Virus record (IMG/VR): IMGVR_UViG_3300037484_000296
Coordinates: 26,268-90,267 of that record
Source of the DNA: a virus
Taxonomy: Duplodnaviria > Caudoviricetes
Reading direction: 5' to 3' (one strand)
DNA: 64,000 bases
Shown here: piece after piece, positions 9,501 to 54,274 of the stretch
How positions within the stretch are numbered: position 1 is the stretch's first letter
Layout of the letters: every line of letters starts with the position of its first letter
Position numbers and translations under genes: made by a program
The notes under the pieces: generated by a model
Databases searched by the model: none
What the model saw: the letters and a program-made list of their open reading frames with translations, nothing else
What the model was told of the DNA's origin: nothing

Positions 9501-12500
9501 CCTTGAATGACGCCGTTAGAATGGATTTGCAGACTCGTGGACACGATGGGATAATTCACGAACCCTATTTTGTTCCGAGCAAAGAAGAATTTGAGCGTAG
9601 CGGTAAGGTTTCACTGAACAAGTTTGGTCGAGAATTAAGAAAAAGCGAAGAATATCCGGGCGGAGTGGACCTGTATAGCGGGAATGAACATATAACCGGG
9701 TATACAGATTTTAATGAAGCTGCGGATATGAACAGGCACGGGGTGTTTATTGCTTTTGAACCCACTCAAATCAAATCCGCAACCGGGAACACTGGAGAAT
9801 TCTCCCCTGAGAACCCCAATATTCTTTACTCCAAAGCCCGTGGCGCGAAGGTGGCGAGTGAGGCTACCGAAAAACTAACTCCTTATTCAGCAAAGCCGGA
9901 AAACAATATTTTCACGGAAATAGCGAGCAACCCAAAACGGTTCTACAGATCATACCGTCAGTCATTCGCGGATAACGATCTTTCTAAGCTGGAAAGATTG
10001 ATCGGCCTCCCGCACTGGATTGCCAAAAATTTTGCAGACTTCGACCGGGTGATGGATGTTGAAGAGATCCGACAAGAAAACAGGGACACCCTGAGAAACG
10101 GACTGCTTTCGGCAAGGATCAAGAAGAACAAAGACGGAATGCACGAATTCCTTGCCCTCCCGAAAGAGTCAAAGAAGAAGGTTGAAAAGTACCTACTTAA
10201 GTCCGACAAGGAAAATAGGGTGATGAATCCCGACGAATTGAAGGGGCTCGATACCGAAAGCAAATCGGCCTACTATTCTTGGAAGCGGGCTATGGATGCG
10301 GCGCTTGAACTTCGTATGCAGTGGCTTGAAAAAATGAACCTGCTTCCTTACGAGGACAAGTCCTGGTTCGAATCGCTCAAAAACGTCACATCTCAAAAGG
10401 GAAAGAAGAATAGGGATAAAACTAAAAAACAGGTACTTTCATCAATACCGGAAGATAGCCATAGAGCTTTCAACGAAGCCTATAACGCGGTGATTTTCGG
10501 GAGAACCGAGATTGCCAAGATGCGCAGACAGATAGGCCGAATCAAGTTCTATGTGCCCCATCAGAGAGAAGGAAATTATGTAGTTGACGTTCATGATCCG
10601 AGAGTAGCAAAGCCGACTGAATGGAATGAGAAGTTCATGGGTCCGTGGAAGGGAAGGCTCATTTGGTCGGAAAGATCTACAAATAAGGTCAAGGGAACAG
10701 AGACCCTGCTGAGACTTCAGCAAAAGTTTCCGGGCATGAAGATGTCTGAATACGTTTCAAAACAAGTGCCGGAAGAGATTTATCAGGCGATTTCCGAGGC
10801 AGCCATTGAAAGGTTCGTCGAGGGCAGTTTGAAACGCGCCGAATCCAAGGAAGGGGTATCTCCTGAAGCGGCTCACGCTCTTAGAAATGCGCTCTTTGAA
10901 ACCGTAACCGACGACCTCAGAAAGCGGGGATGGGAGAGACACGCTATTCATCGGTCGGAAACATGGGTCGGCGGATATGAAACGGAAAATCTTGACAAGG
11001 CTTTTGTTGATTACATGTCCGGGCTGTCCGGGTCTTTGACAAAGATGGAAGCGGCGTATAGATATACTCAAGCATTAAAGCAAATCGACAAGAAAAAGAC
11101 CGAACTCTACGCCTATGCGCAGAATTACGTTAAAAACCTGACCCGAAACCAGACGGATATCGACCGAAAAGTAGGAAAAGCAAAAGCGGCGGCGTTTTTC
11201 ATGTATATTACCGGGAAATTAAGTATGGTGCCTATCCAGCTTACGCAGAACTTCGTTACAGGCATTCCCCAGCTTGGACGCTACACAAGGGGCGCGGGAA
11301 GGAAATACAGCAAAGCTATGGCCGACGTAGCGACGCAGGGGCGCATTTCTAAGCTTTCCCCTGTCGAGCAAGCTGCTTTAAAGGACTTTCACGACAAGGG
11401 ATTAGATCAAGCGAAATTCTTAAACGACATTATGGGTCAGGTAGACGGCTATACGAAGGGAGCTTGGAATAAGGTTAACCGGGGACTCGGATTGCCCTTT
11501 TTCGCAATGGAACATTTTAACCGAAAATCTGCTTTTCTTGCGGCATACCGTGTTTTTGAGAATAAAAAAAACATCGACAATGAAAAGGGCTATGACGCAG
11601 GGGCCTTTAAGAGAGCTACAGATTTTGTACACGATACCCATTTTCAGATGGGAAGGGCAAATAAGCCTGAATTGGCAGCCGGGCCGGGGCCAGGCGGGGC
11701 ATTGCTTAATGCGGCATATACCTTCAACTCCTTCTCTCACAACTTCGTACTATCTCTCGCGGATGGGTTTAGGACGGGGAACGCAAAAGAGGGGGGATTA
11801 TTGGCGCTCAGAAGTCTTTTTTGGCTTACTATACTTGGCGGAATGACCTCAATACCCTGGTGGGATGACTTTTTGGATATCATGGAGAAACAATTCGGCT
11901 GGACTACACGGGCGACCGAGCGAAAATTCCTTCGAACTATCGGCGGGGAAACGCTGGAAACTTTCGGCATGCACGGGCTCCCGGCGCTTCTTGGATTTGA
12001 CCTGTCGGGAAGCATGAAAACCGCGATCCCATTCCATGAGGGAGTTTCCGAGACCGCTATGGGGGTTTATGGTGGACTTCTGGAAAAACTGTCGAGGGGG
12101 GCAAAGTCATTCAATCGGGGAGACTATTGGAGGGCGGCTGAACAGTGGAGCCCGTTATTCCTTGAAAACGCCATGAAGGGCGTAAGAATGTATGGAGAGC
12201 CTGCCACCACTCCGGGCGGCAGAATAGTTTATGATGCGGAAGGAAATCCGATAACCTTGAACGCAAAGGAGGCCGCAGGACAATTCTTTGGGATCAGGCC
12301 GGAAAAGGTATCCACAGCGCAGGCCAAGCGGCAGGAAATGATAAATACCGTCACCTACTACGCGGAACAGAAACAAGCGATCTACGATGAATTTGCGCTG
12401 GCTAATACCGCAGAGAAGCGAGCGAGAGTCATGAAAAAAGTGCGACAGTTCAATAGTAAAGTGAAAGACTTGAAAGGAGCGGTGCCGCTTATTACGGCGG

Positions 12501-12577
12501 CAACTTTAAGGCAGTCAATTATGAGAAAGCGCAGGCCAGACAAGAGGGCTATGTTATTCGACCGGGCGGTTCAATAA
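560..12577 (+). CDS. Large polyvalent virion/ejection protein (PPase-like, 3 HExxH modules, GNAT, ART-like domains, LPD-type C-terminus)
   Basis: 4005 aa; GADGDAMDAFIG..YDENKIMIG, HELFH, HELVH, HEIQH, RKRGLGT..FYKRFGF, KWFGNS..VVYHGS..GFYFT; last gene of the late operon. Confidence 0.85.
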   Translation: MPIVSDKEFEGISSAKSGQILDESDFMKIAPNVPKPDTGVASMEAQASTIPQPKPVASAMPDLSTPVQPTSAMPDLKPDASPVSIKNVAKTLGQGAMDVAGGVSYLSQFVNPMDLVLKAAGRKTLGESGMELSEKASKALEESIPEAERPRPIFSENTKIIEPILKGELPTIELNPEARFSDVFMQGVRQVPQFFGGIAGKSEKAVSLANTIGQKVLPKLGSTLEQKAISMAEKHLAKTGMNLGTDAARKYAENIIGQTIMQAGIGAAQTGGMDAASAYTDVMNMKPEELQSTEYKDTYNDLLAKGQNPEDAKRILANGIANQVFIKTAPSGIPSQLLEFVLPEILHGGRLKRSVKGFLAGAPGEALQEGYEQRIQNVEEQRANPAINPEQGVAESMLLGGLMGGLPGAAQGLKGRPEAKKPYVPNLENQYSPVFPDLTIPPADKAAPAAPIADFDLTSMQPTERGQKIISAMPQMQALKETTAAWRQEAAQGRPAPFTGPGTAMPPIDLTAQDILSQQAEPQGQEERGRPVPVIPSYSTEQFEPGTIMDAEIPTREFTPPPPSQFASSVEKARAKQGPRKPLEMARPTETAMPALEGEIMSPTAKQGAVPSLESNIIEGKAIEEDRELTRKIDQAAYKAEMPKSEAQASAGNYRQGAIVPVQGLNFRAETPRGMFRGGKNKDTGEVWRTKMEAHYGKLIDLPGADGDAMDAFIGPKPTSPTVFVVNQVNPKTKAYDENKIMIGWDSLESAKQAYMDHYAKGWQGFGGIVPMTAEQLKQWATKENVKKPAPMLPAPEARKALPAPEIAGKPTSAMPESLQLPPERLSIPDQKVVKRPVQAEQKALPAPEPVSPPVETAPDSETKPSFDEPRAKKLIEKQGMIYKGTQEDADGNPVDVLFNDPQTDNATYTLPVGKVNAMTIARKIREKRAEFAKAQKPQEKVVEPEKKETPIVKESLQVGSTVRVGNSPEVHTIERELPQTESEKELGEKYFDVKNSKGEIDTYEAKDLKPVKVAEKKEEVEGGSKVRTIHALIESGDKEITRKEIANLYEVKQKQLYKGHIMTAGDVIRDYLKPNGIKVVGKKTEKPSIKTTLTVAGKGGTPNEKAVRQEDADDAAAEAGQKEKVATTTVKLGGKTEKTAMPDTAQTSHFQKLKKELASLKGKNDEQSQKRRVNILDELESYQEETAPTPEKIKSDRQAADEFLKKKLTESQIAGVAVRQQEEIPKEVVKDAVEAAPGTTAKELKAQKKFLIEHVDEAIKDAPEEIEGLDRKVQQINDINNKAKAAYDKAANLRHYKKDEDQVQKLFSEREAFHRQAREIQATIPSVTIEVPNDGNFTVYNDKATLKKFKEIVAKQFPTTPEKAKNLTQPSGKARGYRAPSELEEGIDFKLNGKPAYTNGHLLLLGETKAIPETLAKRWGGADKETNQENRERLAEQAKRLFAENAEKAKLPVGKIKFVAIDEKPYNPADKKNDFPYGVADYPIRGEKQSTTVLISGDVSNAISTDYYQHIIDHYPDATFKIGVEMSKGDNISPVGVYSKGKHAGIVMPWRSSDAVQIAREHMQEESASGKTESVKAPKQEEIKSEAPREAPKYASRDSDFTKISDYISKNYGSKVNIPAFTSKLREMVKSATITAENAEKVIARLKATGEVTIPKSQVLEIAAEEGSNVTRQIKAERSGDNLRVPESYGPLELEAFRLVEEDLGRTIAPSSRISPIQKQVAGEWEKFTGTKILFANSNNIPFDGAVPKKGYIIVSDALDTPQLLSKVIGHELFHNIEHVAKLSPELEAKYKNFSEIARRLITDAKVKEFMEVENKKRVNRLGMKQLETVEEAWSEYGAHILGDAIRDKRFYERMYQQDRNLFEKFVDYIVGVFKKLKILSPDVVESEYYSPEQAVRLINESSDLFAQYLRVKDDFGVVSGESAQGPAYSTKPNQKSLDSIVGKWEKLGVAIDAFDYRNKKNTRIPRQLLSINRIEVDRDKRKRGLGTMAMHDLTDFADENGLRIELSPDDSLGATSKGRLKEFYKRFGFVENKGRNKDFRTSATMYREAITAEGQPLYAAQGIAGKGMSKHDAIFEMKKLDIDFDNLENFVVVENEARLPENIQNDMLSKGLSGTIEGAYDADANAFYIIAGNIASEKRLQQVVQHELVHKGLRNVLGPRIEPIFTAIGKKYRNEIREIADEYNLNVNKKTEMLTAVDEFIARYGEEYKEQPLIKRMIAIVRSWLRNHGFTVDWSDNDILNLAGAALKAEGMGEGVRYSFAGKKAKGFNEAQGKFSDLADRQERFEIDDNKAELQNIKLDSEGVANRTILLSEVLSHAELFKAYPEFKSMLTNISIDPSLEESNGRFDEGTPDTKRYFGREPEITVNARNLEEAKDVLLHEIQHALQVRENFAKGGMPTVGGATELKDRFEEMQDEYNRLKKKLWAERTTRENARFGTLENEIRLLAKRLEGESVDRYRRLSGEEEARRVSARADMTAEERLGTPYERTDLREGEERIVRREGGVAESKESGKIPPMTPKKGAGEKPTEKNPVTPGSGNQVYRSRGPEDAQLMREEDPNGSLANYDKQSQREWLRGANPPSDGKITLYRATPEGKEIAAGDYVTSSRKYAEDHIKNNLGGEGKISQISATLDDIYPADGPGEFWYAPKNILTEKPESKPEGGKWTAKGWVVDFNPQPILDKYGLKNGDEDILQKFAGEGGFISDLSRSQGERYNGLEQQGFIERKHQDVGPGELMGQGFPAKEVDRMILTDRGRELLSGIKRVHREAEKKFFDQLASSDSPRSPQSGDQAALSRSFQEGEENVQGNEGLPESQPGMGEVYGEPGAGREGVNKLRPASVGSEQGDRREDRTTRGANGPILSNPSFRKWFGNSVVTVDGKAGSEPLVVYHGSPIKGFEQFDKNKINPYDPDGPYNGFYFTSDEKDARRSGDFPWGRPNTKGGGETRAYYLALQNPATRSYARKVANEIANTWEQKYPEARSLNDAVRMDLQTRGHDGIIHEPYFVPSKEEFERSGKVSLNKFGRELRKSEEYPGGVDLYSGNEHITGYTDFNEAADMNRHGVFIAFEPTQIKSATGNTGEFSPENPNILYSKARGAKVASEATEKLTPYSAKPENNIFTEIASNPKRFYRSYRQSFADNDLSKLERLIGLPHWIAKNFADFDRVMDVEEIRQENRDTLRNGLLSARIKKNKDGMHEFLALPKESKKKVEKYLLKSDKENRVMNPDELKGLDTESKSAYYSWKRAMDAALELRMQWLEKMNLLPYEDKSWFESLKNVTSQKGKKNRDKTKKQVLSSIPEDSHRAFNEAYNAVIFGRTEIAKMRRQIGRIKFYVPHQREGNYVVDVHDPRVAKPTEWNEKFMGPWKGRLIWSERSTNKVKGTETLLRLQQKFPGMKMSEYVSKQVPEEIYQAISEAAIERFVEGSLKRAESKEGVSPEAAHALRNALFETVTDDLRKRGWERHAIHRSETWVGGYETENLDKAFVDYMSGLSGSLTKMEAAYRYTQALKQIDKKKTELYAYAQNYVKNLTRNQTDIDRKVGKAKAAAFFMYITGKLSMVPIQLTQNFVTGIPQLGRYTRGAGRKYSKAMADVATQGRISKLSPVEQAALKDFHDKGLDQAKFLNDIMGQVDGYTKGAWNKVNRGLGLPFFAMEHFNRKSAFLAAYRVFENKKNIDNEKGYDAGAFKRATDFVHDTHFQMGRANKPELAAGPGPGGALLNAAYTFNSFSHNFVLSLADGFRTGNAKEGGLLALRSLFWLTILGGMTSIPWWDDFLDIMEKQFGWTTRATERKFLRTIGGETLETFGMHGLPALLGFDLSGSMKTAIPFHEGVSETAMGVYGGLLEKLSRGAKSFNRGDYWRAAEQWSPLFLENAMKGVRMYGEPATTPGGRIVYDAEGNPITLNAKEAAGQFFGIRPEKVSTAQAKRQEMINTVTYYAEQKQAIYDEFALANTAEKRARVMKKVRQFNSKVKDLKGAVPLITAATLRQSIMRKRRPDKRAMLFDRAVQ

Positions 12578-21119: not shown

Positions 21120-21827
21120 TCATGCATCACCATTTACAAACAAGTGCCCGATAGCCTCGTTTATAGTATTATATGTTGGCAAAATATCAGTGCGCTCCGT
21201 TATTCCTGCATCTGAAACAACTAGAAACGTGCCATTCCTTTGTCGTTCGGAAAGGTCGGTTGCCCAGTTCTTCCCGATGCCATACAACATTTCATGCATA
21301 GCCGTATGATTCTTGCCGTGTAGCTCTTTATGAGAAAAAAAATCCCGAGCGTACATCTGAAGACTATTTCTCTCCCAATCTTTCGCCCTCCATAAAAAGG
21401 CGTTAACAACATCTCCAACCGGAACGGTAAATGCCCTGCTATCAAATACCGGAGCGCGATCTGACGGGAATGCTTTATTGAAATGAACTGTCATAGTAGC
21501 CGCAGATATGGACACCATTTTAGCGAGGTCATAATCGAACCAAGCTTGAGTTTCATTGGAGTCGTAATCGGTCAGGCAAAACGTAGCTTCATCCGACTGA
21601 ACATATCCGGCCTTAAACCCTTGCATTTCTGATGCTGATTCTATTGCGGCATAGAGCATTGCCTGGATCAATTTGCTATCAAACGGCTTTTCGCAGTGCC
21701 TCGTAAACGTATGAAATGCCCGCCCATCAACCCGGATCATAACCGGCATCTTGCGTAATGTCATATAGTGGAATGTTTTTTCGTAACGTTTTATTCTATC
21801 GCCTAGCGTCATATGTTCTCCGATCAA
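21120..21827 (-). CDS. tRNA(His) guanylyltransferase Thg1-like protein (3'-5' polymerase)
   Basis: RVDGRAFHTFT, YVQSDE, VFDSRAF, RNSLQM, KELHGKN. Confidence 0.92.
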   Translation of the reverse strand: MIGEHMTLGDRIKRYEKTFHYMTLRKMPVMIRVDGRAFHTFTRHCEKPFDSKLIQAMLYAAIESASEMQGFKAGYVQSDEATFCLTDYDSNETQAWFDYDLAKMVSISAATMTVHFNKAFPSDRAPVFDSRAFTVPVGDVVNAFLWRAKDWERNSLQMYARDFFSHKELHGKNHTAMHEMLYGIGKNWATDLSERQRNGTFLVVSDAGITERTDILPTYNTINEAIGHLFVNGDA

Positions 21828-26062: not shown

Positions 26063-26355
26063 TGTTACATTTTCTGTTACAATTTTGTTACGGAGAAGAG
26101 GGAAGAGGTAAAATCAGGCTTGTAAGTGATTGAAATAGAATAGAATGGGAATGGTGCCGCTGCCCAGGATCGAACTGGGATGGTCAAAGACCGAGAGATT
26201 TTAAGTCTCTTTTGCAGCGCTTTATACCCCTTCGCTATCTGCTTGATTTTACTGTTTTCCCTTTCTCCGCCAAATACTTACCGGCTTTATTCTGTCGGCT
26301 ATAATTGGCCACAATTGGCCAGACCACCAACCGTCAGTGTTACATTAATGCTACG
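26063..26355 (-). other. attP: 3' part of tRNA-Leu(TAA) (26152-26210) flanked by TGTTACA arm-type repeats and IHF-like sites
   Basis: AGAGA CTTAAAA TCTCT, variable arm, T arm, CAGCGGC A CCA; 5' half absent; repeats at 26063, 26075, 26086, 26338, 26349. Confidence 0.85.
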
Positions 26356-27417: not shown

Positions 27418-28584
27418 CTATTTATTATGTCGCCTAATTTCCTCTTCCTGTTTCTTCAAATATTCTAGCGTCTTATCGGCTACGCTCTTCTGTTCTTCCT
27501 CGCCGGTGATATTATACCGGGTAAACATGGAGCCCGTTTTCCAGCCGCCGATTTGCTTAATGTCTTCCTCGGGATTTCCGGCGTTCTTCATATTCTTCGC
27601 TGCGCTTCGTCTGATATCGTGGAAGATGGTTTCATTCGCCTTTTTGAATTTGTTCTCTTTGCAGGATCGACACTTTAAATCCTCTCGCTTTTCTCCGAGA
27701 GAGAGATATTCAAAGTTGCCGCACTTTTTACATTTGAACCGGATCTTTTGCCCGGTCCTCATTAACGCGGATTCCCATGCTGTGCGAAAATCCGTCACAC
27801 GCTTCCCCTTGAGGTTGACGATATATTCACATTCAGGATATTCCCGCTCGGTTTTTTGTACCCAATCGAACACTTCTTGATAGAATTGACCTCTGAGGAA
27901 AAACCCTCGCTGTTCGTTATTCTTGGTCTCTTCCAGCAAAACGTAGCCGGTGATTTTGTTGAACTGATGGATTTTGAGCGTGAAAACTTCCGTCTTCCGT
28001 ACTGTGCTAGCATATGAAATGAGTAGCGCTATTTGCAAATAGTCCGGCAGTTCCGGCTTAAACCTTAAATAAAATTCATGGTCAATGAATCCCTTTCTTA
28101 CGTTGTTCTCTTCCAACTTTATTATTTTGGGTATCCGCGCTACAAGCTGCGGCTCGTGATTAAAGCCTAAAGAAAACATTCGTTGAAGTGCCGACAGATA
28201 GCGATTTATATATGCGTTAGAATCTCCCTTGTTCTGACAAAATATAATAAATGATTTGATACGAGAGGGGATATGGATAGCTTTTTCTTTCTTGCCGAAA
28301 AACTTTTCCATGCGCTTGATTCTGTTGATTTGGCTGGTTAGAGACTTGCGATTATTGATCGTGTAATCTTCAATAAGAAGGCGGGAGAGGTCTTCAAAAT
28401 CAACCTCGTCGATTTTCTTGCCCTTGTATTCATGCTTTAAAACTTCGGCTTCGCGAATAGAAAGTTGCGCCTCGGCTTCTCTTTTTTTTGTCCACTTGGG
28501 CGATCCATGCTCATATTGTCTTTTTTTGTGCTGATCGACAAACCAGATATGCCAGTACTTCTTGCGCCTGTATACGCCTCCCAT
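27418..28584 (-). CDS. int: Tyrosine integrase with zinc-ribbon insertion
   Basis: VRKTE, HDIRR, GGWKT, FTRY catalytic motifs; N-terminal arm-binding region. Confidence 0.93.
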   Translation of the reverse strand: MGGVYRRKKYWHIWFVDQHKKRQYEHGSPKWTKKREAEAQLSIREAEVLKHEYKGKKIDEVDFEDLSRLLIEDYTINNRKSLTSQINRIKRMEKFFGKKEKAIHIPSRIKSFIIFCQNKGDSNAYINRYLSALQRMFSLGFNHEPQLVARIPKIIKLEENNVRKGFIDHEFYLRFKPELPDYLQIALLISYASTVRKTEVFTLKIHQFNKITGYVLLEETKNNEQRGFFLRGQFYQEVFDWVQKTEREYPECEYIVNLKGKRVTDFRTAWESALMRTGQKIRFKCKKCGNFEYLSLGEKREDLKCRSCKENKFKKANETIFHDIRRSAAKNMKNAGNPEEDIKQIGGWKTGSMFTRYNITGEEEQKSVADKTLEYLKKQEEEIRRHNK

Positions 28585-28785
28585 AGGTTATCCTCTATCT
28601 GCCGTATGATTTTTTATCCCAGCACTCCTGGCACTTATCGCCCAAAAGATGAAGGGCAAAAGCGATGATCTTTTCCCGGTCCCATTCCCTCAGGAGGTGA
28701 GCGGTAATCATTTTTTCATCATTGAGCACTTCGACTGCTTTTCTTACTCCTGCCTCATACGATGTTTTACACATAGCCACCTCGA

Positions 28786-28839
28786 TCATAACGAGTCGTT
28801 TGTTTCGGTCGCTCCGCGCAGGACAACTCGTCGTTATGC
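28786..28839 (-). repeat. attC-like site
   Basis: GCATAAC...GTTATGA hairpin; contains the stop of the upstream gene. Confidence 0.65.
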
Positions 28840-29064
28840 TATAAATTTCCACATGACGTAGATCAACCCATTGTGCAAAGAATCTAAATCGCAAACACAG
28901 GAATCCTCACCATGCGTCATTAAAGTTTCCCCTCTTTTTGTTATAGCGATATAATCAGCGATATTACCTCCTTCATCGCATACCATCAACCAGAGGCCTT
29001 CTTTATCTGGTTTTGTTTCGCTATATCCTTGCTTTTTTCTGTATTCAATGCTTTTCTTTTCCAT
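28834..29064 (-). CDS. Hypothetical protein in attC-bounded cassette
   Basis: Starts after GTTATGC, ends in the complementary GCATAAC. Confidence 0.65.
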   Translation of the reverse strand: MEKKSIEYRKKQGYSETKPDKEGLWLMVCDEGGNIADYIAITKRGETLMTHGEDSCVCDLDSLHNGLIYVMWKFIA

Positions 29065-29084
29065 GCGACTCCTTCCCGACGAGC

Positions 29085-43238: not shown

Positions 43239-43355
43239 CGGAGGCTATTGTGGCCGACATTCGCGAAGCAAGAATAATAATCAAATGCATACTAGCGGGG
43301 ATCGGAATATGGTCCTTGCTGTTGTTTATTGGCTGGTGGTTGTGGAGGTAAAACA

Positions 43356-44354
43356 ATGCGCATCCTGAGAAACATAAAAGTTCCTACCGGGAATATCCTT
43401 GTCGTGGAAGGAGAGCGGGGCAAGCTAGAAATGCTTTCTCTCGGAGACTACGGGAAAGATATAAACGTAAAATGCGATTGCATGGGCCTGACGCGGGAAA
43501 TCGAGAAGGTTGACCATTGCGCCCTTTTACCTCTTGAAGAGAAGTGGGTTATTACGATCAGCACACAGTACGGCTGCTCAATGGGCTGTAAATTTTGCGA
43601 CGTGCCGAAAGTTGGCCCCGGCATAAACGCAACGACAAACGACCTAATAAAGCAGGTCTTGACCGGAATTCGATTGCACCCTGAAGCTCAGACCACGAAC
43701 CGGCTGAATATCCACTTTGCACGGATGGGTGAGCCGACCTGGAACCCAAATGTGCTTGACGCTACGAAGTGGTTTAAGACGCACATCGACCCGGAGTACA
43801 AAATACACCCTGTTGTTTCTACTATGATGCCGAAGCGGAACGAATGGCTGAAGACATTCATTCATACATGGATGAGAATTAAAAACCGTCTTCTACAGGG
43901 AGAGGCTGGACTACAGATAAGCGTAAACAGCACAGACGAGGCCGAACGCTCGGAGATGTTCAACGGCAACTGCCACACGCTTGAAGACATAGCTCGGATC
44001 ATGGAAGGCATAATTCCCGTAGGCCGAAAAATCACGTTGAATTTTGCGCTTGCTAGACACGAGATTGACCCGGCGAAGCTCCTAAAATACTTCAACCCTG
44101 ACGACTATATTATAAAACTTACGCCGATGCACAAGACGGCACGGGCAATTCAAAACGGGATCGAAACGGCGGGTGACTACACAACATTCACACCGTACCG
44201 AGAAGATGAAGGACGATTAAAAACCGCAGGATATGATGTACTAGTTTTCATCGCGTCAGAATACGAGGACCTGGGCCGGATCACTTGCGGCAATGCGATA
44301 CTGAGCGGAACGATGCCGTTATGCACTTATGAGGAAATCAAATGCAAAAGCTAA
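43356..44354 (+). CDS. RlmN/Cfr-like radical SAM enzyme
   Basis: ISTQYGCSMGCKFC, RMGEP, C-terminal ITCGN. Confidence 0.8.
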   Translation: MRILRNIKVPTGNILVVEGERGKLEMLSLGDYGKDINVKCDCMGLTREIEKVDHCALLPLEEKWVITISTQYGCSMGCKFCDVPKVGPGINATTNDLIKQVLTGIRLHPEAQTTNRLNIHFARMGEPTWNPNVLDATKWFKTHIDPEYKIHPVVSTMMPKRNEWLKTFIHTWMRIKNRLLQGEAGLQISVNSTDEAERSEMFNGNCHTLEDIARIMEGIIPVGRKITLNFALARHEIDPAKLLKYFNPDDYIIKLTPMHKTARAIQNGIETAGDYTTFTPYREDEGRLKTAGYDVLVFIASEYEDLGRITCGNAILSGTMPLCTYEEIKCKS

Positions 44355-45106: not shown

Positions 45107-45164
45107 GGATAACGCTGAGTTGAGCATCGCGCTCCTCAGCGAATGATCGAACGTTTTGTTGGGC
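45107..45164 (+). repeat. attC-like site
   Basis: GGATAAC...GTTGGGC, 58 nt. Confidence 0.65.
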
Positions 45165-45175
45165 CGGGGGTTGAA

Positions 45176-45502
45176 ATGCCAAAAAAGAAAAGACCGTTGA
45201 AGTGCATGGAATGCGGGACCACAAAGAAGGCCGATGAAGTGCGCCGGAACTGCATCACTTGGACGGCATGGGGCCGGAATTCATTCGATTTTAATTGGTC
45301 GCGGAATCGAACCCGCGTTGACCTCTGCGGCAATTGTGAAAACGGAAAATGGATCATGTGCTCAAATTGTTTCGCACTGATCGACAGTTATGATTACGGA
45401 CGCGGATACCTGCCAGAGGATCACGATGGAGAATCCATCTGTCCGGGATGCGCCAAGAAAAAGGGGTTTGCAATTACCGTTGGAATGCCAGAAGGATTTT
45501 AA
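45176..45502 (+). CDS. Multi-CxxC zinc-binding protein in attC-bounded cassette
   Basis: Flanked by GTTGGGCC and GGCCCAAC. Confidence 0.65.
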   Translation: MPKKKRPLKCMECGTTKKADEVRRNCITWTAWGRNSFDFNWSRNRTRVDLCGNCENGKWIMCSNCFALIDSYDYGRGYLPEDHDGESICPGCAKKKGFAITVGMPEGF

Positions 45503-46112
45503 GGCCCAACCAGGTATTAACTCAACTTTGCACAGTTTAGGCCACACCAAGGTAAACCAATGACCCCAGATGAATACACTCAATCAATAGAAATGCTCCG
45601 CACACAGTTCCCGGCCTTCCAGCAATACGAGGAAAAAATAAAAACAGCACGGGAAGCCCGCGAAAAAGAAATATATCAGCACGTAAGGGATCACGGTGCA
45701 TCAGTCCGAATTCTGCTGGATACTCTCATGTTGTCAAACTCAAAAGAATACCGTGAGGAAATGTGCCACAGAATTCACGAGGCCGATGATGAATTGTTGA
45801 ATAAAATTCTAGATGGGAGGAAAGCGTAACGGGAGGGATTATGCGCGGGAAATGTGAATCAGATATGTGTCATGCAAATAACGGCGGGGAGTGTATGAAT
45901 GTTGTTCATTGTGACATCTTTTATGCTCATAAGCCCGAAACGAACGAAAGCTTTTCGTCCCCCCATATGACCGAATCAGACATAAACAAAATAATCATCT
46001 ACTGTGAAACCGGAATAGACGCCGCAGATGGTAAGCGGAAAAATAAAACTCAGGCCCGGTCGGTTGAGCAGGTGATGCTTGAGAAGATATTAGAGATTGT
46101 AGGGAATAAACA

Positions 46113-46729: not shown

Positions 46730-47482
46730 ATGAGGCCATTACTTTATACGCCTTCGGGAAGAGCGGGGGAATACGCTGACAAGGGATATGCGGCTAATAT
46801 TTTTAGCGGCTGCGATCACGGATGCCTCTACTGTTACGCTCCTGGATGCAGGAGAATGAATGGGGCGGCGGGAAAGGCTAAGTTTCACTCTTCTGTAAAT
46901 CCAGTGCCAGACCTGTTTGCACGGCTTGCAAAAGATTGCTCCAAACCTGTGCCAGATCCAATATTTTTATCGTTCCTTTGCGACGTTTATCCGGCAAACC
47001 GTGATGTTCATTCTGTCACCCGAGAGTGTCTTGAGATTATTGCCAATTCCGGCAACTCCGTCAACATTCTCACTAAGGGCGGCTCCCGAGCAATTAAGGA
47101 TTTCGATTTGCTTGCCAAAGATCCAAGAAACAAGATCGGAGCTACCCTCACTTTTTTAGACAACGCAAAATCCCGCCATTGGGAGCCTAAAGCGACCCTT
47201 CCCGACGACCGTTTGCACATGCTGGCGGCGGCAAAGGACGCGGGAATATATACCTGGGCCTCCTGCGAGCCCGTAATTGAGCCCTCAGAGACGCTACGCA
47301 TCATGTATTTTGCGGCTCCCTATGTCGATGAATTCAGAATTGGGAAGTGGAACCACGATCAAAAGGCAAAAGAAATCGACTGGAAGAAATTTTACAACGA
47401 CGCGAAGAACCTCATGGGACAACTCGGTAAAAAGCACATGTTTAAAATTGATTTGCTTGAAGCGGCAGGCGTGAAGTCATAA
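46730..47482 (+). CDS. Radical SAM protein (SPL/SplB-like family)
   Basis: GCDHGCLYCYA; ILTKG; ASCEPVI. Confidence 0.75.
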   Translation: MRPLLYTPSGRAGEYADKGYAANIFSGCDHGCLYCYAPGCRRMNGAAGKAKFHSSVNPVPDLFARLAKDCSKPVPDPIFLSFLCDVYPANRDVHSVTRECLEIIANSGNSVNILTKGGSRAIKDFDLLAKDPRNKIGATLTFLDNAKSRHWEPKATLPDDRLHMLAAAKDAGIYTWASCEPVIEPSETLRIMYFAAPYVDEFRIGKWNHDQKAKEIDWKKFYNDAKNLMGQLGKKHMFKIDLLEAAGVKS

Positions 47483-47778: not shown

Positions 47779-48603
47779 TTGGTAAAATTTAAACTTGTCA
47801 ATGACCACTTCCAGAATTACAAACGCCACAATATTCACAAGGCGCAGCTGGTCATTGCTGACATTCCCTACAATATTGGGATAAACGCCTATGGTTCAAA
47901 CCCTTCGTGGTACGTCGGCGGAGACAATACCAACGGCGAAAGTGAACTGGCCGGGAAAGAGTTTTTTGATACCGATAAGGATTTCAGAATCACTGAGTTT
48001 TTACACTTCTGCTCAACACTGATGGTGAAGGAGCCGAAAGAAGCGGGGAAAGCGCCCTGTATGATTGTTTTCTGTGCGTTCGAACAACAGTTTGAGCTGA
48101 TCGAAAAGGCGAAAAAGTACGGGCTTATGAAATATATCAACCTTGTTTTCAGAAAAAACTTTTCCGCTCAAGTACTCAAGGCAAATATGCGGGTTGTTGG
48201 AAACTGTGAATATGCGCTGCTTCTTTACCGGGACAAACTACCGAAGTTTAACAACGACGGGAAAATGGTTTTTAACTGCATGGATTGGGAGAAGGATTCT
48301 GACACTCCTAAAATTCATCCCACGCAAAAACCAGTCAAGCTATTGGAACGGTTAATCCGAATTTTCACAGATGAGGGGGAAGTCGTAATTGATCCAGTGG
48401 CCGGTAGCGGCACTACGCTTTTGGCCGCAATGAATTGCAATAGGGCTTCGTATGGTTTTGAAATCAAGAAAGACTTTTACCGAGAAGCAACGAATATGCT
48501 GGAAGAGCGCAAGAGTATACTTAATGAAATTGAGAAGTATGGGTTTTCACCAACAGAACAGGGAAAGACGCACCCATCGTTATTTTCAGGGCTAGCACTG
48601 TAA
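47779..48603 (+). CDS. DNA adenine/N4-cytosine methyltransferase (beta class)
   Basis: IADIPYN; HPTQKPVKLLERLI..VIDPVAGSGTT. Confidence 0.92.
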   Translation: MVKFKLVNDHFQNYKRHNIHKAQLVIADIPYNIGINAYGSNPSWYVGGDNTNGESELAGKEFFDTDKDFRITEFLHFCSTLMVKEPKEAGKAPCMIVFCAFEQQFELIEKAKKYGLMKYINLVFRKNFSAQVLKANMRVVGNCEYALLLYRDKLPKFNNDGKMVFNCMDWEKDSDTPKIHPTQKPVKLLERLIRIFTDEGEVVIDPVAGSGTTLLAAMNCNRASYGFEIKKDFYREATNMLEERKSILNEIEKYGFSPTEQGKTHPSLFSGLAL

Positions 48604-49942: not shown

Positions 49943-50408
49943 TTGGGTCCGCTTTATAGAAAACTTTCTCGGGCTAAGACTGGCGGACGATCAAGTTAAA
50001 ACCTGGGTTGTGTCCCTTGAGAGATATGAGAACTGGCGTCTCGATGAATTGATTAATTTCCGACTGAACGAAGAGGGGCGCGGTAGAACATTGGCCGATG
50101 TTTGTCGGTTTCTCGATGCGCTCATGCCCCATCCAGAAAGAGAATCCGTGCGTGAGGATACGGGGTATAAGCAAATAACCGAAGAGCCCGAAAGTAAAAT
50201 TTCGGAAAGAACCCAGCTTGCCCGCGATGTAAACGCGCATATTCAGCGCATGATTTCATTTATCGGAGATGGAAAATTAACCGAAGAGTCTCTTTCCGAG
50301 AAAAGACGCGTTGAATATGCAGGACTGCAAGAACTACATGAAAAATATCCTCACGCTGGCTTTAATCGTGTGATGAAAGAATCGCGGTTTAACAAAATCC
50401 CGGCCTGA
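49848..50408 (+). CDS. Hypothetical protein (helicase-loader position)
   Basis: Directly follows the O-like gene; true start uncertain. Confidence 0.45.
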   Translation: MENSTLSDKRNTTSENTNQLSQTLEKRQYATNWVRFIENFLGLRLADDQVKTWVVSLERYENWRLDELINFRLNEEGRGRTLADVCRFLDALMPHPERESVREDTGYKQITEEPESKISERTQLARDVNAHIQRMISFIGDGKLTEESLSEKRRVEYAGLQELHEKYPHAGFNRVMKESRFNKIPA

Positions 50409-50615
50409 TCGGTAAAACAGGAGAAAGCACACGATTCAGAAAAGCAAAAACGTAACATCTCGGGGCCGGTTGGGATGCAGCCGGTCCCAAACAAACGACG
50501 GCGTGCATCCCGTGGAACTCGGGAGATTTTCGGGAATGAAATATAAGCCGAGCCGTCATTTTAACACGCGGGTAACACGCGACGCGAAGCGGCGTCGTAG
50601 TTGACCCTGCTGGTT

Positions 50616-51032
50616 ATGCCCGCAGGGTTCAGAGGACCTAAATTGAAAGATAGATATTGGTTAACACCAAACGGGGTATATGCACCATTGAACGAGGAGT
50701 TTTCTTTTGACTTTGATCCATGTCCGTGTCCGAAGCCGGACGGGTACAACAGCCTAAGCGTCGAATGGGGAAAGATGAATTACGTCAATCCACCGTTTCG
50801 TCGAGAAGACGGGAACGGCGTAGGACCTACCGCCTTCGCCCGGAAAGCTATAGAGGAAAAGAAAAACGGAAAATCATCAGTGCTTTTGTTACCCGTGCAG
50901 TCATACGTCAATCTGCTGTTGGAGGCGGGAGCAGAGTTGCGGTCCTTGGGCCGAGTAAAATGGATAGAGGTCGAGACGGGCAAAGAATGTCCGCACCCGT
51001 CACCGACGTGCTGTTTTGTTCTGCGGGCATAA
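50616..51032 (+). CDS. Phage DNA N6-adenine methyltransferase (Dam-type), cassette 1
   Basis: YWLTP..FDFDPCP..YVNPPF. Confidence 0.85.
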   Translation: MPAGFRGPKLKDRYWLTPNGVYAPLNEEFSFDFDPCPCPKPDGYNSLSVEWGKMNYVNPPFRREDGNGVGPTAFARKAIEEKKNGKSSVLLLPVQSYVNLLLEAGAELRSLGRVKWIEVETGKECPHPSPTCCFVLRA

Positions 51033-51104
51033 CGTGCGCGTGTGGGGCTCGTCGTTTGCGTCCCGCACGACGCCGCTTGTTAGACGGATTTTTAGGAGAA
51101 AACC

Positions 51105-51479
51105 ATGTGGGAAAATATTGATCCAAAAAACGACGACGCTCATTATTCCGTCATGCGAAAACAACGAGGCGTTGGAGGCATGACCGCATTGCGCGGGATG
51201 TTCCCGAACGCCGAGGCCGATAATATGAATCTGGTTTTGTTCTCAACGTCAGGCGTTCACGGAACATATAACACCATCGAGGAAGCAGAGGCAACGATTA
51301 ACGGCATTCCCCACGAAGGTGGACAATTTGCCGAGGTAACTTTTTTAATAGTGCATCCTCGGCTCGTGGCGTTGCGATACGGCGTCTGCAATCCGAAGAA
51401 TCAAAAAGACATTGATTATCTAAAGAAGCTGAGAGCCAGCAGTCATGCGGTATTGGCGAAGGTTGGTTTAAACGTCTAA
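51105..51479 (+). CDS. Hypothetical protein, cassette 2
   Basis: RBS AGGAG; stop in GTCTAAC. Confidence 0.75.
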   Translation: MWENIDPKNDDAHYSVMRKQRGVGGMTALRGMFPNAEADNMNLVLFSTSGVHGTYNTIEEAEATINGIPHEGGQFAEVTFLIVHPRLVALRYGVCNPKNQKDIDYLKKLRASSHAVLAKVGLNV

Positions 51480-51536
51480 CGACCCAGCTGAACCGCCCCG
51501 GCGGTATTTTGCCGGGGACGGTTTCGAGCCCGATGG

Positions 51537-51935
51537 TTAGGCCCGCTTTTTACGGGGTCTGCCTTTCGGGTAGCCACCGAGTTTTCCGTTTTCAGCAGAG
51601 GTGAGCGCTTTTGTAGGAGAGGTTGATGATCCACCGAGACGACCGAGTTCAGACCGATACTGAAACCCTGCCAGTGTTTTCATTGCCTGTTGGATATTCT
51701 GGCCATCGACGCCAGCCCGATAGCCGAGGCCGCGCATTTTGCGGGATGGGTCCGAATCGTCAGCGAGAGACAGCCAGAGTTTGTGTTCCGCTGCGGTCCC
51801 GAATTTATCGCCGTGTTTGTTGCGACGGAGGCCGCGCTGATAGCCGGTCCAGAACTCCTGCTCGTCGGGATCAGAAGAAAGGCGGCGGAACGTGTCCGCC
51901 GCCGTCATGTTGGTTTGAAAATCAGCGTTACGCAT
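51537..51935 (-). CDS. Putative DNA-binding protein, cassette 3
   Basis: C-terminal GRLGG..SAENGKLGGYPKGRPRKK. Confidence 0.6.
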   Translation of the reverse strand: MRNADFQTNMTAADTFRRLSSDPDEQEFWTGYQRGLRRNKHGDKFGTAAEHKLWLSLADDSDPSRKMRGLGYRAGVDGQNIQQAMKTLAGFQYRSELGRLGGSSTSPTKALTSAENGKLGGYPKGRPRKKRA

Positions 51936-52230
51936 TGGCATACTCTCTCTCAAATTCACGCTCAGACATTACGTTTTTTACTATTTCGGTGGTTACTAAT
52001 TCTCCGTCGAGATGTTCCAACAGAGTTGACAGGCGGGCATTATTAGCGATGGCATTCCGAACCAATTTTACCAGATCAGCCAATGCCGCCTCGAACTCGG
52101 CATTTTCATCGTCGATTGACGGCATCCCGGAAATCATGCCCATTCTATATCCAGCGATTTTCCGAACGTCAGCGCGAGCCTGTTCTAATCTGGTTACTGC
52201 GGAGTCGATTTTTGCATAATTGGTTTTCAT
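51928..52230 (-). CDS. Hypothetical helical protein, cassette 3
   Basis: RBS AGGAGG; own promoter. Confidence 0.65.
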   Translation of the reverse strand: MKTNYAKIDSAVTRLEQARADVRKIAGYRMGMISGMPSIDDENAEFEAALADLVKLVRNAIANNARLSTLLEHLDGELVTTEIVKNVMSEREFEREYANA

Positions 52231-52277
52231 ATTGCCTCCTGAGCGGGTTGACCGCCTGTTTTGTTCTACCTGAGAAC

Positions 52278-52306
52278 AGTATACCAAACCCGGTTAGGTT
52301 TGTCAA
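52278..52306 (-). promoter_or_regulatory. Cassette-internal sigma70 promoter
   Basis: TTGACA-17 bp-TATACT. Confidence 0.8.
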
Positions 52307-52441
52307 GGGGAAAAGTAAAATATTTTTTCGATTGCAAAAGAATGCAACTCAGGCCGGTTTGAGGGCCTAACATGTAAGTCAGCCGCCGTCCTTTTTGGAC
52401 GGCTGGACTGACTGGTTATCTAATTTTAATGGAGAAGAATT

Positions 52442-52687
52442 TTGGCAAAGAGCGTTTGGATGATCGAAAAAACAATTGATGGCGTTCCTCATTGGTGGAT
52501 ACGCAAACCGGATCAATATGGATATTGGGACGATTCGGACAGATGGACAACGGATCCGAACAAAGCCAGACATTACAGCGAACAGTGGGAAGCAATTCAT
52601 GTAATAGGTTCGGATATGGTTGGGTGTGTTGCCACCGAGCATGTGTTTATGGATCAGGGGTCGCAGGTCCAGGAATCTGCGGAGTAA
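52442..52687 (+). CDS. Trp-rich hypothetical protein, cassette 4
   Basis: RBS GGAG, TTG start. Confidence 0.65.
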   Translation: MAKSVWMIEKTIDGVPHWWIRKPDQYGYWDDSDRWTTDPNKARHYSEQWEAIHVIGSDMVGCVATEHVFMDQGSQVQESAE

Positions 52688-52810
52688 ACGGCAATCAAAC
52701 CTTATATTGCCACCCCTGATTTTACAGATAACGCGGCGCTGACCTGCCGCAGCGAAGCGAAGGCCAGTGTCGAGCGTCCTGGTTGTGACCGGGGGATCAG
52801 AAAGGATATC

Positions 52811-53116
52811 ATGAAAAATTGCAAACATCTCTTGCTCGTAGAGCCGGAATATTTACCGGGGAAATCATTTTGCGATAGCTGTGGCGATCTTGTAAATACG
52901 GTAAAAATTAACAATGACTATCTTCGGGTATCATATAACAGTGACAAAGAGGAGCTAACGATAAGCCATATTGTCTCCGATAGCGGCTGGAAAATAGTTG
53001 CCAATGCCAGCGGTAAGTTTCATGTTTTCGAGGTGCAAATGGATCAGGATGACCATTGGGAAGCGACATGTCCGACAATTGTAGAGGCAATGGCAATAGT
53101 CTCTAAGTGGTCATAA
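52811..53116 (+). CDS. Hypothetical protein, cassette 5
   Basis: RBS AAAGGA; stop in TCATAAC. Confidence 0.7.
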   Translation: MKNCKHLLLVEPEYLPGKSFCDSCGDLVNTVKINNDYLRVSYNSDKEELTISHIVSDSGWKIVANASGKFHVFEVQMDQDDHWEATCPTIVEAMAIVSKWS

Positions 53117-53187
53117 CATGTAAGTCAGCCGCCGTCCTTTTTGGACGGCTGGACTGACCGGTTATAATTTTTTCGTCGGAGGCAACA

Positions 53188-53496
53188 TTGAATACTCAAT
53201 TTGATTGGCAAGGTCTTTTAAAAGCTCAACAAGAAGTGTCGAAGGCGCATGTAATGCCGTTGCCTCATTTTTCTGCGTGTTCCGTGTGCCTCGGATCAAA
53301 TACGCCTGGACAAAGATCGTATCCAGCGGGCGCATGGTGCTGTGGTTTATGGTGCGATGGTTTTGTCGGATATTCTAATCTCGCGTTTGGTTTCTGCGAA
53401 CGATTTAAATTATGCGAAGAATCATTGCAAGTGCTCGTTTACAAAGTACGACCCAAACCGGAGCAACCAGCATCATATAAGGCAGAAAAATTATAA
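53188..53496 (+). CDS. Cys-rich hypothetical protein, cassette 6
   Basis: RBS GGAGG, TTG start; stop in TTATAAT. Confidence 0.55.
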   Translation: MNTQFDWQGLLKAQQEVSKAHVMPLPHFSACSVCLGSNTPGQRSYPAGAWCCGLWCDGFVGYSNLAFGFCERFKLCEESLQVLVYKVRPKPEQPASYKAEKL

Positions 53497-53668
53497 TGCC
53501 AGCATGAGCGGCGGAGCGCAGCGTAGTCCGTCTCCATGCTCTGGTTGAAAGGGGGTGATTATAAAATGGGAAAGACAACCAAGAAAACATCAAAGAAGAA
53601 AACAAGCGGGAAGCCCAGCAAGGAAATGCCGGGGAAGATGTGCTAGGCAGTGCTCATTTGTAGTAAGA

Positions 53669-53695
53669 GCCGGGGTGAATAGCCCCGGTTGTTTT
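53669..53695 (+). terminator. Rho-independent terminator
   Basis: GCCGGGG/CCCCGGT plus TGTTTT. Confidence 0.6.
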
Positions 53696-54274
53696 AAAGG
53701 GGGGCAAATTGATTTATGACAACTGGAAGCAAATAGCTGATTATTGGCTGTGTTCGATCAATACGGCGAAGAAGCACAGTAAAACGATTGACGATACGGA
53801 AATATTCTATGTTGCATTGGTGACCCGTAGGCCGCATCTGGACAGCGAAAGGTATGAGACCAAATACGGGAGCCCTAGAAGTTCCCCGTAGGGCCTTACC
53901 GTTCGTTTCACCCCGCCTTAAAAGTAGGGCCGCAAACCATGCGGGCTACTGCCAACCTTTCTCAATTCCCCATTTGACGATTTTGACGATTTTGACGGCT
54001 TATTTTTTTGGTCAATACATGAAATAATACCAGCATATAGCTATAGGGCCTTAATTGCGTTTGTAGTTTACATGTTCAAAAAAATTAAAATCTATGTCGC
54101 AAGAGATCAAAATAACAAGACAAAACGCCCTCCGCGTTCTTAGGACCGCGCAGCCACTTACCCCAGAGATCCGGCAGCAGTGCGAGAACGCGAGGAAAGG
54201 ATAGCGTGGGCAAAAATTAATCTTCGCACGATTTAAAATAAGCCATTCTCGCAAGTAAAGGCATAGCAAGATAA

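Follow-up and report, generated by a model that had tools for sequence, protein, structure and literature searches.

A probable integrase-less array of integron-type cassettes, with its genes on the attC bottom strand, between the replication and terminase genes of a temperate phage

Cassettes between the replication and terminase genes

To begin with, the last 64 kb of a 90-kb virus record rated complete in IMG/VR (IMGVR_UViG_3300037484_000296, record positions 26,268 to 90,267) were analysed; this stretch of 64,000 nucleotides (nt) is called the window, and its coordinates are used throughout. The element under study is a gene array at 50559-53550, which consists of six cassettes and seven attC sites (W1 to W7) and lies between replication genes on one side and, on the other, a small conserved open reading frame (ORF) preceding the gene of the small terminase subunit (TerS). 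The original prediction had described seven imperfect hairpins of the form xxxTAAC...GTTxxxx at this place, and all seven were recovered exactly where it had located them. In 7/7 sites, a left box ending in TAAC (TAAT in W7) is followed by an imperfect palindrome and then by a right box beginning with GTT, TAAC and GTT being invariant across the array except for the AAT of W7. Moreover, the terminal R boxes (RYYYAAC...GTTRRRY) are mutually pairing in all seven sites, with helix 1 being 100% paired.

The boxes at the two ends of each cassette had also been said to be complementary, which was borne out with footprints of 13, 8, 9, 7, 9 (one mismatch) and 12 nt for cassettes 1 to 6, respectively. 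In particular, the match was exact for cassette 1 (GTTATGCCCGCAG, 50613, and CTGCGGGCATAAC, 51033), cassette 2 (GTTAGACG and CGTCTAAC), cassette 3 (GTTAGGCCC and GGGCCTAAC) and cassette 4 (GTTATCT and AGATAAC); the mismatch was found in cassette 5 (GTTGTGACC and GGTCATAAC), and in cassette 6 (GTTATAATTTTT and AAAAATTATAAT) AAT replaces AAC. The start of each unit is therefore the reverse complement of its own end, which is the footprint of a cassette integrated from a circle. Likewise, the stops of four of the five forward genes fall in the left box, as had been proposed (51030-32, 51477-79, 53114-16 and 53494-96), the ORF at 52442-52687 being the one whose stop lies outside it. Inverted repeats of at least 7 nt taken singly were at chance level (228 observed vs. 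about 210 in shuffles), and neither the counts of 6-7-nt inverted repeats nor loose chains of them differed from shuffles, so only a strict chain test was informative. When exact footprints of at least 7 nt and hairpin-sized gaps were required, a chain of length 8 was obtained, whereas the longest in 200 shuffles was 6 and the typical length was 3, although the upstream four links of this chain may be due to chance.

The cassettes carry phage-type genes, including the Dam-like methylase that had been announced for the array, an assignment that holds weakly (29.7 bits for PF05869 against a cut-off of 28.1; E 7e-14 for PHROG 111). Cassette 1 (50565..51032, + strand) comprises the body of W1, the R'' box GTTATGCCCGCAG and the ORF of this Dam-like N6-adenine methyltransferase, with a probable start at 50643 and a TAA end. 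Cassette 2 (51033..51479, +) holds the ORF 51105-51479, coding for a widespread phage early protein of 124 amino acids (aa). A homologue of this protein with 75% identity was found at locus L100 with the same GTTAGRCG and CGYCTAAC boxes and a hairpin upstream but none downstream, and members of the family also occur in overlapping operons without an attC match (L098 and L099). The following forward units are cassette 4 (52371..52731, +), with the 81-aa ORF 52442-52687 and the 7-nt footprint; cassette 5 (52732..53116, +), with the 101-aa ORF 52811-53116 and the footprint bearing the mismatch; and cassette 6 (53117..53496, +), with the 102-aa ORF 53188-53496 and the 12-nt footprint ending in AAT. 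Apart from the methylase, no family was assigned to the cargo in profile searches.

Cassette 3 (51480..52370) is oriented on the minus strand and contains two genes, at 52230-51928 (about 100 aa) and 51941-51537 (134 aa), the second of which has its stop within GGGCCTAAC on that strand. It presents its own promoter at 52278..52306 on the minus strand (TTGACA, 17 nt, TATACT, with a TG; 11/12 match), which was the only strong promoter-like site in 50300-53800. With genes that are read on the minus strand and terminate in its box, and with a promoter of their own, cassette 3 is a cassette of canonical sense. In bacterial contigs (L119-L121), homologues of its two genes (window 51537-52326) with about 80% identity immediately precede a DDE transposase of the IS1595 family, an arrangement seen twice in one metagenome-assembled genome, and no attC match was detected at these loci. 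At the DNA level, homology extends over the promoter region and the second gene. Judging by these neighbours, the gene pair may be a passenger module of an insertion sequence that was captured as a cassette. A role of cassette 3 as a toxin-antitoxin or defence system was also considered and found unsupported, with no Pfam, NCBIfam or PADLOC match.

Attribution of the sites to attC and their polarity

The sites were classified with two covariance models. For model R1, 17 phage sites were taken in coding-strand orientation, while model R2 was trained on the array of a phage contig from another sample (L104), Tetrasphaera phage TJE1, a bacterial integron (L118) and L100, with no sequence from the window, from the phage contig L001 or from the prophage L002. 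A total of 10 window sites were recovered by R2 at E <= 0.008 on the coding strand, namely W1 to W6 (E <= 7e-4) and four others, at coordinates identical to those of R1, and nothing further was found at E <= 1 in the 64 kb except W7. The four others had been detected by R1 as extra sites at 29085-29138, 31888-31944, 45107-45164 and 28786-28839, each on the local coding strand, and R1 found no sites in the structural genes or in the first 26 kb of the record. As for the controls, R1 recognized 8/8 sites in L118, next to a full-length integron integrase (IntI; 417 bits, cut-off 265), and 3/3 published sites in TJE1 (E 2e-5 to 3e-4), and gave 0 matches at E <= 0.1 in 600 kb of unrelated prophage DNA. 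No sites of this attC family were found with more distant relatives of the large terminase subunit (TerL) in Nitrospirota and other genomes. These matches and controls, together with an alignment to the attC of aadA1, led to the window sites being classified as integron-type attC. The array had been designated as an attC cluster without integrase (CALIN), and this stands: seven attC sites lie within 3 kb and no TIGR02249 match was found in the 90-kb contig, the lack of IntI in the record being what defines the class.

The individual sites, all on the + strand, were as follows. W1 (50559..50619), for which the + strand is the attC bottom strand, has the left box TTTTAAC, a GCGAAGC loop and the right box GTTATGC (R1 36.1 bits; R2 E 1.5e-4), and its four 1-nt bulges are all on the 3' arm when the R boxes are forced to pair. 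The bulges of W2 (51027..51085; R2 E 4.5e-5) are on the 3' arm as well, and in W3 (51474..51542; R2 E 3e-4) the 3' arm of the + strand is longer by three bases. W4 (52365..52421; R2 E 1.9e-7) shares its 45-nt core with W6 (53111..53167; R2 E 9.6e-5), which shows canonical geometry on the minus strand, and W5 (52726..52788; R2 E 6.6e-4) has an GCGAAGCG loop and four 3'-arm bulges. The core common to W4 (52368-52412) and W6 (53114-53158) is identical in both and also appears in L001 (2462-2518), which comes from another sample; a search of the species genomes for the exact W4 core gave no match. Finally, W7 (53491..53550) is weak, with 30.3 bits in R1, of which it was a training member, and a fold of -6.4 kcal/mol. 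The array has R'' boxes of the GTTATAAT type, and its outermost boxes pair with each other (right box GTTGAAA of W7 with left box TTTTAAC of W1, 7/7 with one G.T). This pairing fits a stepwise insertion of cassettes into one resident attC, of which W7 is probably the body. The outer boxes of the array, TTTTAAC...GTTGAAAGG (50559-50565 and 53544-53555), also resemble those of L001, TTTTAAC...GTTGGAAAGG (4008-4014 and 1549-1555), despite the differing gene contexts, which may reflect a shared resident attC or the movement of a whole array.

Regarding their structure, the sites follow the classical plan: R boxes are present, the L boxes have a bulged G and the loops are of the GCGAAGC type. Unconstrained folding was weak for four of them (z from -0.2 to -1.8 for W1, W2, W5 and W7), so that free folding alone was not decisive, and RNAalifold returned no structure on the MAFFT alignment, for which reason the structure was supplied by hand. 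In an alignment of 17 sites from the window and two other phage records, the L helix with its bulged G covaries: 85.5% of the cells were paired vs. 74.4% in shuffled alignments, a value that none of 500 shuffles reached, and slid controls gave 20-46%. The L boxes with an extrahelical base and 7-5-8...7-5-7 spacing fit exactly in W4 and W6 when the minus strand is taken as the top strand. Permissive scanners based on boxes and on energy had a background of 1-3 matches per 20 kb, which made them unfit to judge relatives. The apical motif GCGAAGC(G), a known very stable DNA mini-hairpin, appears on the coding strand of W1, W5, 29085-29138, 31603-31654, 31888-31944 and several L001 sites, and likewise on the bottom strand of aadA1-type attC sites.

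One element of the original prediction had to be reversed. It had taken xxxTAAC as the inverse core box after the gene and GTTxxxx as the core box, in a gene-then-attC order, whereas five lines of evidence identify the bottom strand of the attC with the coding strand. The extrahelical G that had been pointed out in the first site is real and lies on the 3' arm of the + strand; in classical attC sites, it is the bottom strand whose 3' arm carries the extrahelical bases, and the + strand is therefore the bottom strand of this site. Along the same line, the single-base bulges of W1 to W6 are almost all on the + strand 3' arm when the R boxes are forced to pair. Secondly, the strict arrangement R''7-5-L''8-centre-L'7-5-R'7 fits W4, W6 and the L001 and L002 sites only on the strand opposite the genes. 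Thirdly, W1 aligns to the bottom strand of the attC adjacent to aadA1 in pJJ1897_1, aadA1 being on the other strand. Fourthly, R1 matches the coding strand in the phages, including 9/9 new sites in L104, but the strand opposite 12/12 cassette ORFs in L118, and also the one opposite orf1-3 in TJE1. Lastly, where single cassettes or pairs are inserted (45107-45510, the xis-int pair, L002 and L100), the footprinted gene has a hairpin before it and nothing but a bare half-site after it.

Consequently, the canonical layout of a promoterless ORF on the top strand with its attC downstream is absent from 5/6 cassettes, in which the attC lies upstream of an ORF on the bottom strand. As far as sequence can tell, these five are thus reversed cassettes coded on the attC bottom strand, and the two-gene cassette 3 is canonical. 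Read on the mRNA strand, a reversed cassette therefore consists of C, hairpin, GTTxxxx, ribosome site, gene and xxxxTAA, and its crossover would fall at TAA|C. Reversed cassettes in phages were not found mentioned in the literature searched. A prediction that derives from this polarity is that the coding strand of these sites would be the recombinogenic strand.

Further loci, relatives and the source of turnover

Beyond the main array, at least four more cassettes were found at three places in the early regions, giving a total of at least 10 at four loci. The first is a single cassette on the + strand at 45107..45510, with a hairpin at 45107-45164 (R1 E 5e-3; R2 E 8e-5), GTTGGGCC, a zinc-finger ORF at 45176-45502 and then GGCCCAA|C, with no hairpin after it. 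The second is a pair of cassettes on the minus strand at 28586..29138, between the xis-like gene (29378-29133; Pfam HTH_17) and int (28584-27418; Pfam Phage_integrase), with hairpins at 29138-29085 and 28839-28786 (R2 E 1.8e-7 and 8e-3, respectively); a bare half-site, GGATAA|C, precedes the start of int and closes the pair. The third, also on the minus strand, is a cassette at 31603..31944 with a 9-nt footprint, in which a hairpin (31944-31888; R1 E 1.9e-3, R2 E 3.4e-3) is followed by GTTATCTGC, a 75-aa ORF (31876-31649), GCAGATAA|C and a weaker hairpin (31654-31603).

The window also encodes an endolysin, an Ant anti-repressor, an exonuclease, an excisionase-like helix-turn-helix protein, a single tyrosine integrase, an O-like replication initiator, TerS, TerL and a head-tail adaptor (connector) protein. 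From the joint presence of endolysin, Ant, xis-like, integrase, replication and terminase genes, the source is a temperate phage of roughly 90 kb, which comes from sediment. No megablast match to the array region was obtained among GenBank phages, and no relative was found in IMG/VR by TerL patterns. Several other features of the genome were observed. A tiny Lys/Gly-rich ORF (MGKTTKK...) just upstream of TerS is kept in this phage (53567-53647) and in L002 (8157-8249) and marks the backbone side of the array. A single ORF of 4005 aa (560-12577) adjoins the endolysin region. At 21120-21827, 43329-44354, 46730-47482 and 47779-48603, outside the cassettes, lie a gene for a Thg1-like tRNA-His guanylyltransferase, two ORFs with weak radical-SAM matches and a gene for another DNA methylase (N6_N4_Mtase). 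The TerL of the window has 594 aa and no intein or homing-endonuclease domain, while several of its relatives (P0021, P0042, P0093 and others) have about 950 aa with intein or homing-endonuclease domains.

A comparison of related phages had been suggested as a check on turnover, and the content of the array did differ from that of relatives at the same locus. L002, a prophage whose TerL is 51% identical, presents two cassettes with different cargo at the same position, before the same small ORF and TerS. The phage contigs L001 and L104, both from other samples, have 8 and 9 sites, respectively, some with cores identical to those of window sites, and share almost no cargo with the array. The same circle-type footprints were found in 7/7 cassettes of L001 and in part of those of L104, and no sites were found in the DNA searched of L003. 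Two public sediment runs, which may stem from the source sample itself, carry this DNA, and the contigs of both break at the W4/W6 repeat. In one of them (X2), no contig spans about 52441-52807 (cassette 4) and the depth is low over 52808-53174 (cassette 5), with flanks at about 75-87x. This gap could correspond to a population without these cassettes or to an assembly or filter artefact, and it is not taken as evidence of excision because no joint was reported.

As for the enzyme, the record does not hold a complete integron: IntI is missing from the contig, and attI and the cassette promoter (Pc) were not searched for. The sole tyrosine recombinase of the contig is a generic phage Int (27418-28584; Phage_integrase 48.8 bits) with no IntI-model match. 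The TerL relatives point to magnetotactic Nitrospirota, and IntI above the curated cut-off was present in 32/81 sampled genomes of the class in which the nearest related prophages occur, which makes a host IntI acting in trans on the phage cassettes plausible.

The reading that we consider likely is a genuine integrase-less cassette array, coded on the bottom strand and situated between the replication genes and the terminase, which would be turned over by a host IntI. A host-supplied integron integrase would excise cassettes as circles, and these would enter a resident attC in the main array or bare AAC/GTT secondary sites in the case of the single cassettes, so renewing the accessory genes of the phage. 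A crossover at TAA|C would put the insertion directly after the stop codon of the upstream gene, and the new gene would therefore be read through from phage promoters.

Several observations weigh against this reading. No IntI was found in the 90-kb contig with TIGR02249, nor above the cut-off in five magnetotactic Nitrospirota genomes with related prophages, which presented only Xer-like enzymes, and the host itself is suggested only by TerL identities of 41-45%. No recombination joints were found in the contigs of the two public sediment runs, which are kept as contigs. Furthermore, W7 is weak with R2 (E 0.37), and the footprint of cassette 5 contains a mismatch. The training sites of R2 were chosen with R1, so that the two models are not fully independent, and the short calibration makes their E-values rough.

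Some of these observations would also fit a fossil array, that is, a past integron-type acquisition whose sites are now inactive and are kept as spacers between genes. The lack of IntI in the phage and in the five nearest candidate host genomes, the degenerate W7, the imperfect footprint and the lack of joints in the contig data all agree with it. However, perfect footprints persist at lengths of up to 13 nt, W4 and W6 retain an identical 45-nt core, the same cores appear in phage contigs of other samples, and the content at the same locus differs between related phages, so that a fossil array is considered unlikely.

Action on the sites by another recombinase, either the phage tyrosine integrase (27418-28584) or a host Xer-type enzyme, was judged improbable. 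It would account for the two cassettes that end directly at the start of int, whose start codon abuts the half-site, and for Xer-like recombinases being the only ones found in the five genomes with related prophages. On the other hand, the sites have all the structural hallmarks of IntI substrates, and the models that detect them also recognize IntI1-validated and intI-adjacent attC sites; moreover, the phage Int is a weak generic match to Phage_integrase and none to the IntI model, and L001 has arrays with no tyrosine recombinase in its 30 kb, although this record is incomplete. Finally, it is considered highly improbable that the sites are intergenic regulatory or terminator hairpins or repetitive extragenic palindromic (REP)-like repeats, between which genes would be shuffled by homologous recombination as with the PeSL elements of T4-type phages: intergenic hairpins can serve as RNA signals and the W4/W6 repeat breaks assemblies as any repeat would, but there are no T-runs, terminator-like matches are no more frequent than in shuffles and fall elsewhere than the full hairpins, the sites match the attC of a true integron and of TJE1, and the complementary flanking boxes are unique to each cassette, as expected from a circle cut at a fixed point and not from homologous exchange.

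Returning to the host-driven cassette array, its reversed polarity has consequences for the exchange of genes. Phage cassettes placed in a bacterial integron would be antisense to Pc; in the phage, a bacterial cassette of the ordinary kind would stay silent if it came without a promoter such as the one that cassette 3 brings. A tentative extension, to which we give less than even weight, is that some phage lineages might keep a mirror-image cassette pool, in which genes would occupy the bottom strand, a hairpin would form their 5' leader and the crossover would be at the stop codon before them; these cassettes would be swapped by host IntI among co-resident phages and transcriptionally insulated from bacterial integrons. 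If this were true, neither kind of cassette would be expressed in the other setting, the phage ones behind Pc and the bacterial ones in phage operons. Since the bottom strand would be the non-template strand, phage transcription might also promote folding and recombination of the sites in such a pool.

Comparison with known cassette systems

Integrons are regarded as bacterial gene-capture devices, and clusters of attC sites in phages, which have been reported only recently, were presented as arrays of the ordinary kind. The temperate phage studied here has about ten cassettes, distributed over four loci, with one pair lying exactly between xis and int. The same types of site are found in several phage contigs of other samples, all with genes on the strand contrary to the integron rule. 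Were this a general situation, site-specific cassette exchange would be the source of much of the mosaicism of 'moron' and early genes in some phages, and a cassette pool oriented for phage operons would coexist with the bacterial pool.

The closest known system is that of phage CALINs, including methylase cassettes, which have already been published (Qi et al. 2023, PMC9892861), and the attC sites of TJE1 were shown to recombine with IntI1 (PMC9892861). TJE1 resembles the window array in its attC-bounded cassettes, the lack of IntI nearby and the DNA methyltransferase cargo, and R1 and R2 recognize the sites of both. In contrast, the attC of TJE1 follows the gene and its bottom strand is non-coding, while the attC of the window precedes the gene and its bottom strand is coding, a polarity that is not mentioned in PMC9892861. 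Moreover, the minimum set for a CALIN was two attC sites (PMC9892861), compared to the about ten cassettes at four loci in this phage.

Sedentary chromosomal integrons, such as L118 of the class Thermodesulfovibrionia, have attC sites of the same family, small single-gene cassettes and occasional own promoters. However, L118 has intI with an array running from it and 12/12 ORFs on the attC top strand, whereas the phage array lacks intI, is located inside phage operons and has 5/6 cassettes antisense to that orientation. The insertion of single cassettes at GWT sites has also been published, as single attC sites lacking integrase (SALINs) and attG sites (Loot et al., bioRxiv 10.1101/2022.09.11.507474). 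The single cassettes described here are similar, being inserted at GWT secondary sites (G|TT, equivalent to AA|C) with one attC and a bare half-site left (45107-45510, xis-int, L002 and L100). Unlike SALINs and attG, which concern bacterial chromosomes, the phage targets are the stop-codon-proximal TAA|C in operons, with the cargo on the bottom strand.

Finally, class 1 attC sites of the aadA1/aadA7 type have in common with the phage sites their R boxes, the bulged G in a 7/8-nt L pair and the GCGAAGC loop, and W1 shares CGCGAAGCGGCGTCG with the attC beside aadA1 in pJJ1897_1. The difference is that this likeness is to the strand opposite aadA1, and in the phage that strand bears the genes. 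Phage CALINs, methylase cassettes and GWT insertion were already known, and the reversed polarity is what distinguishes the array described here.

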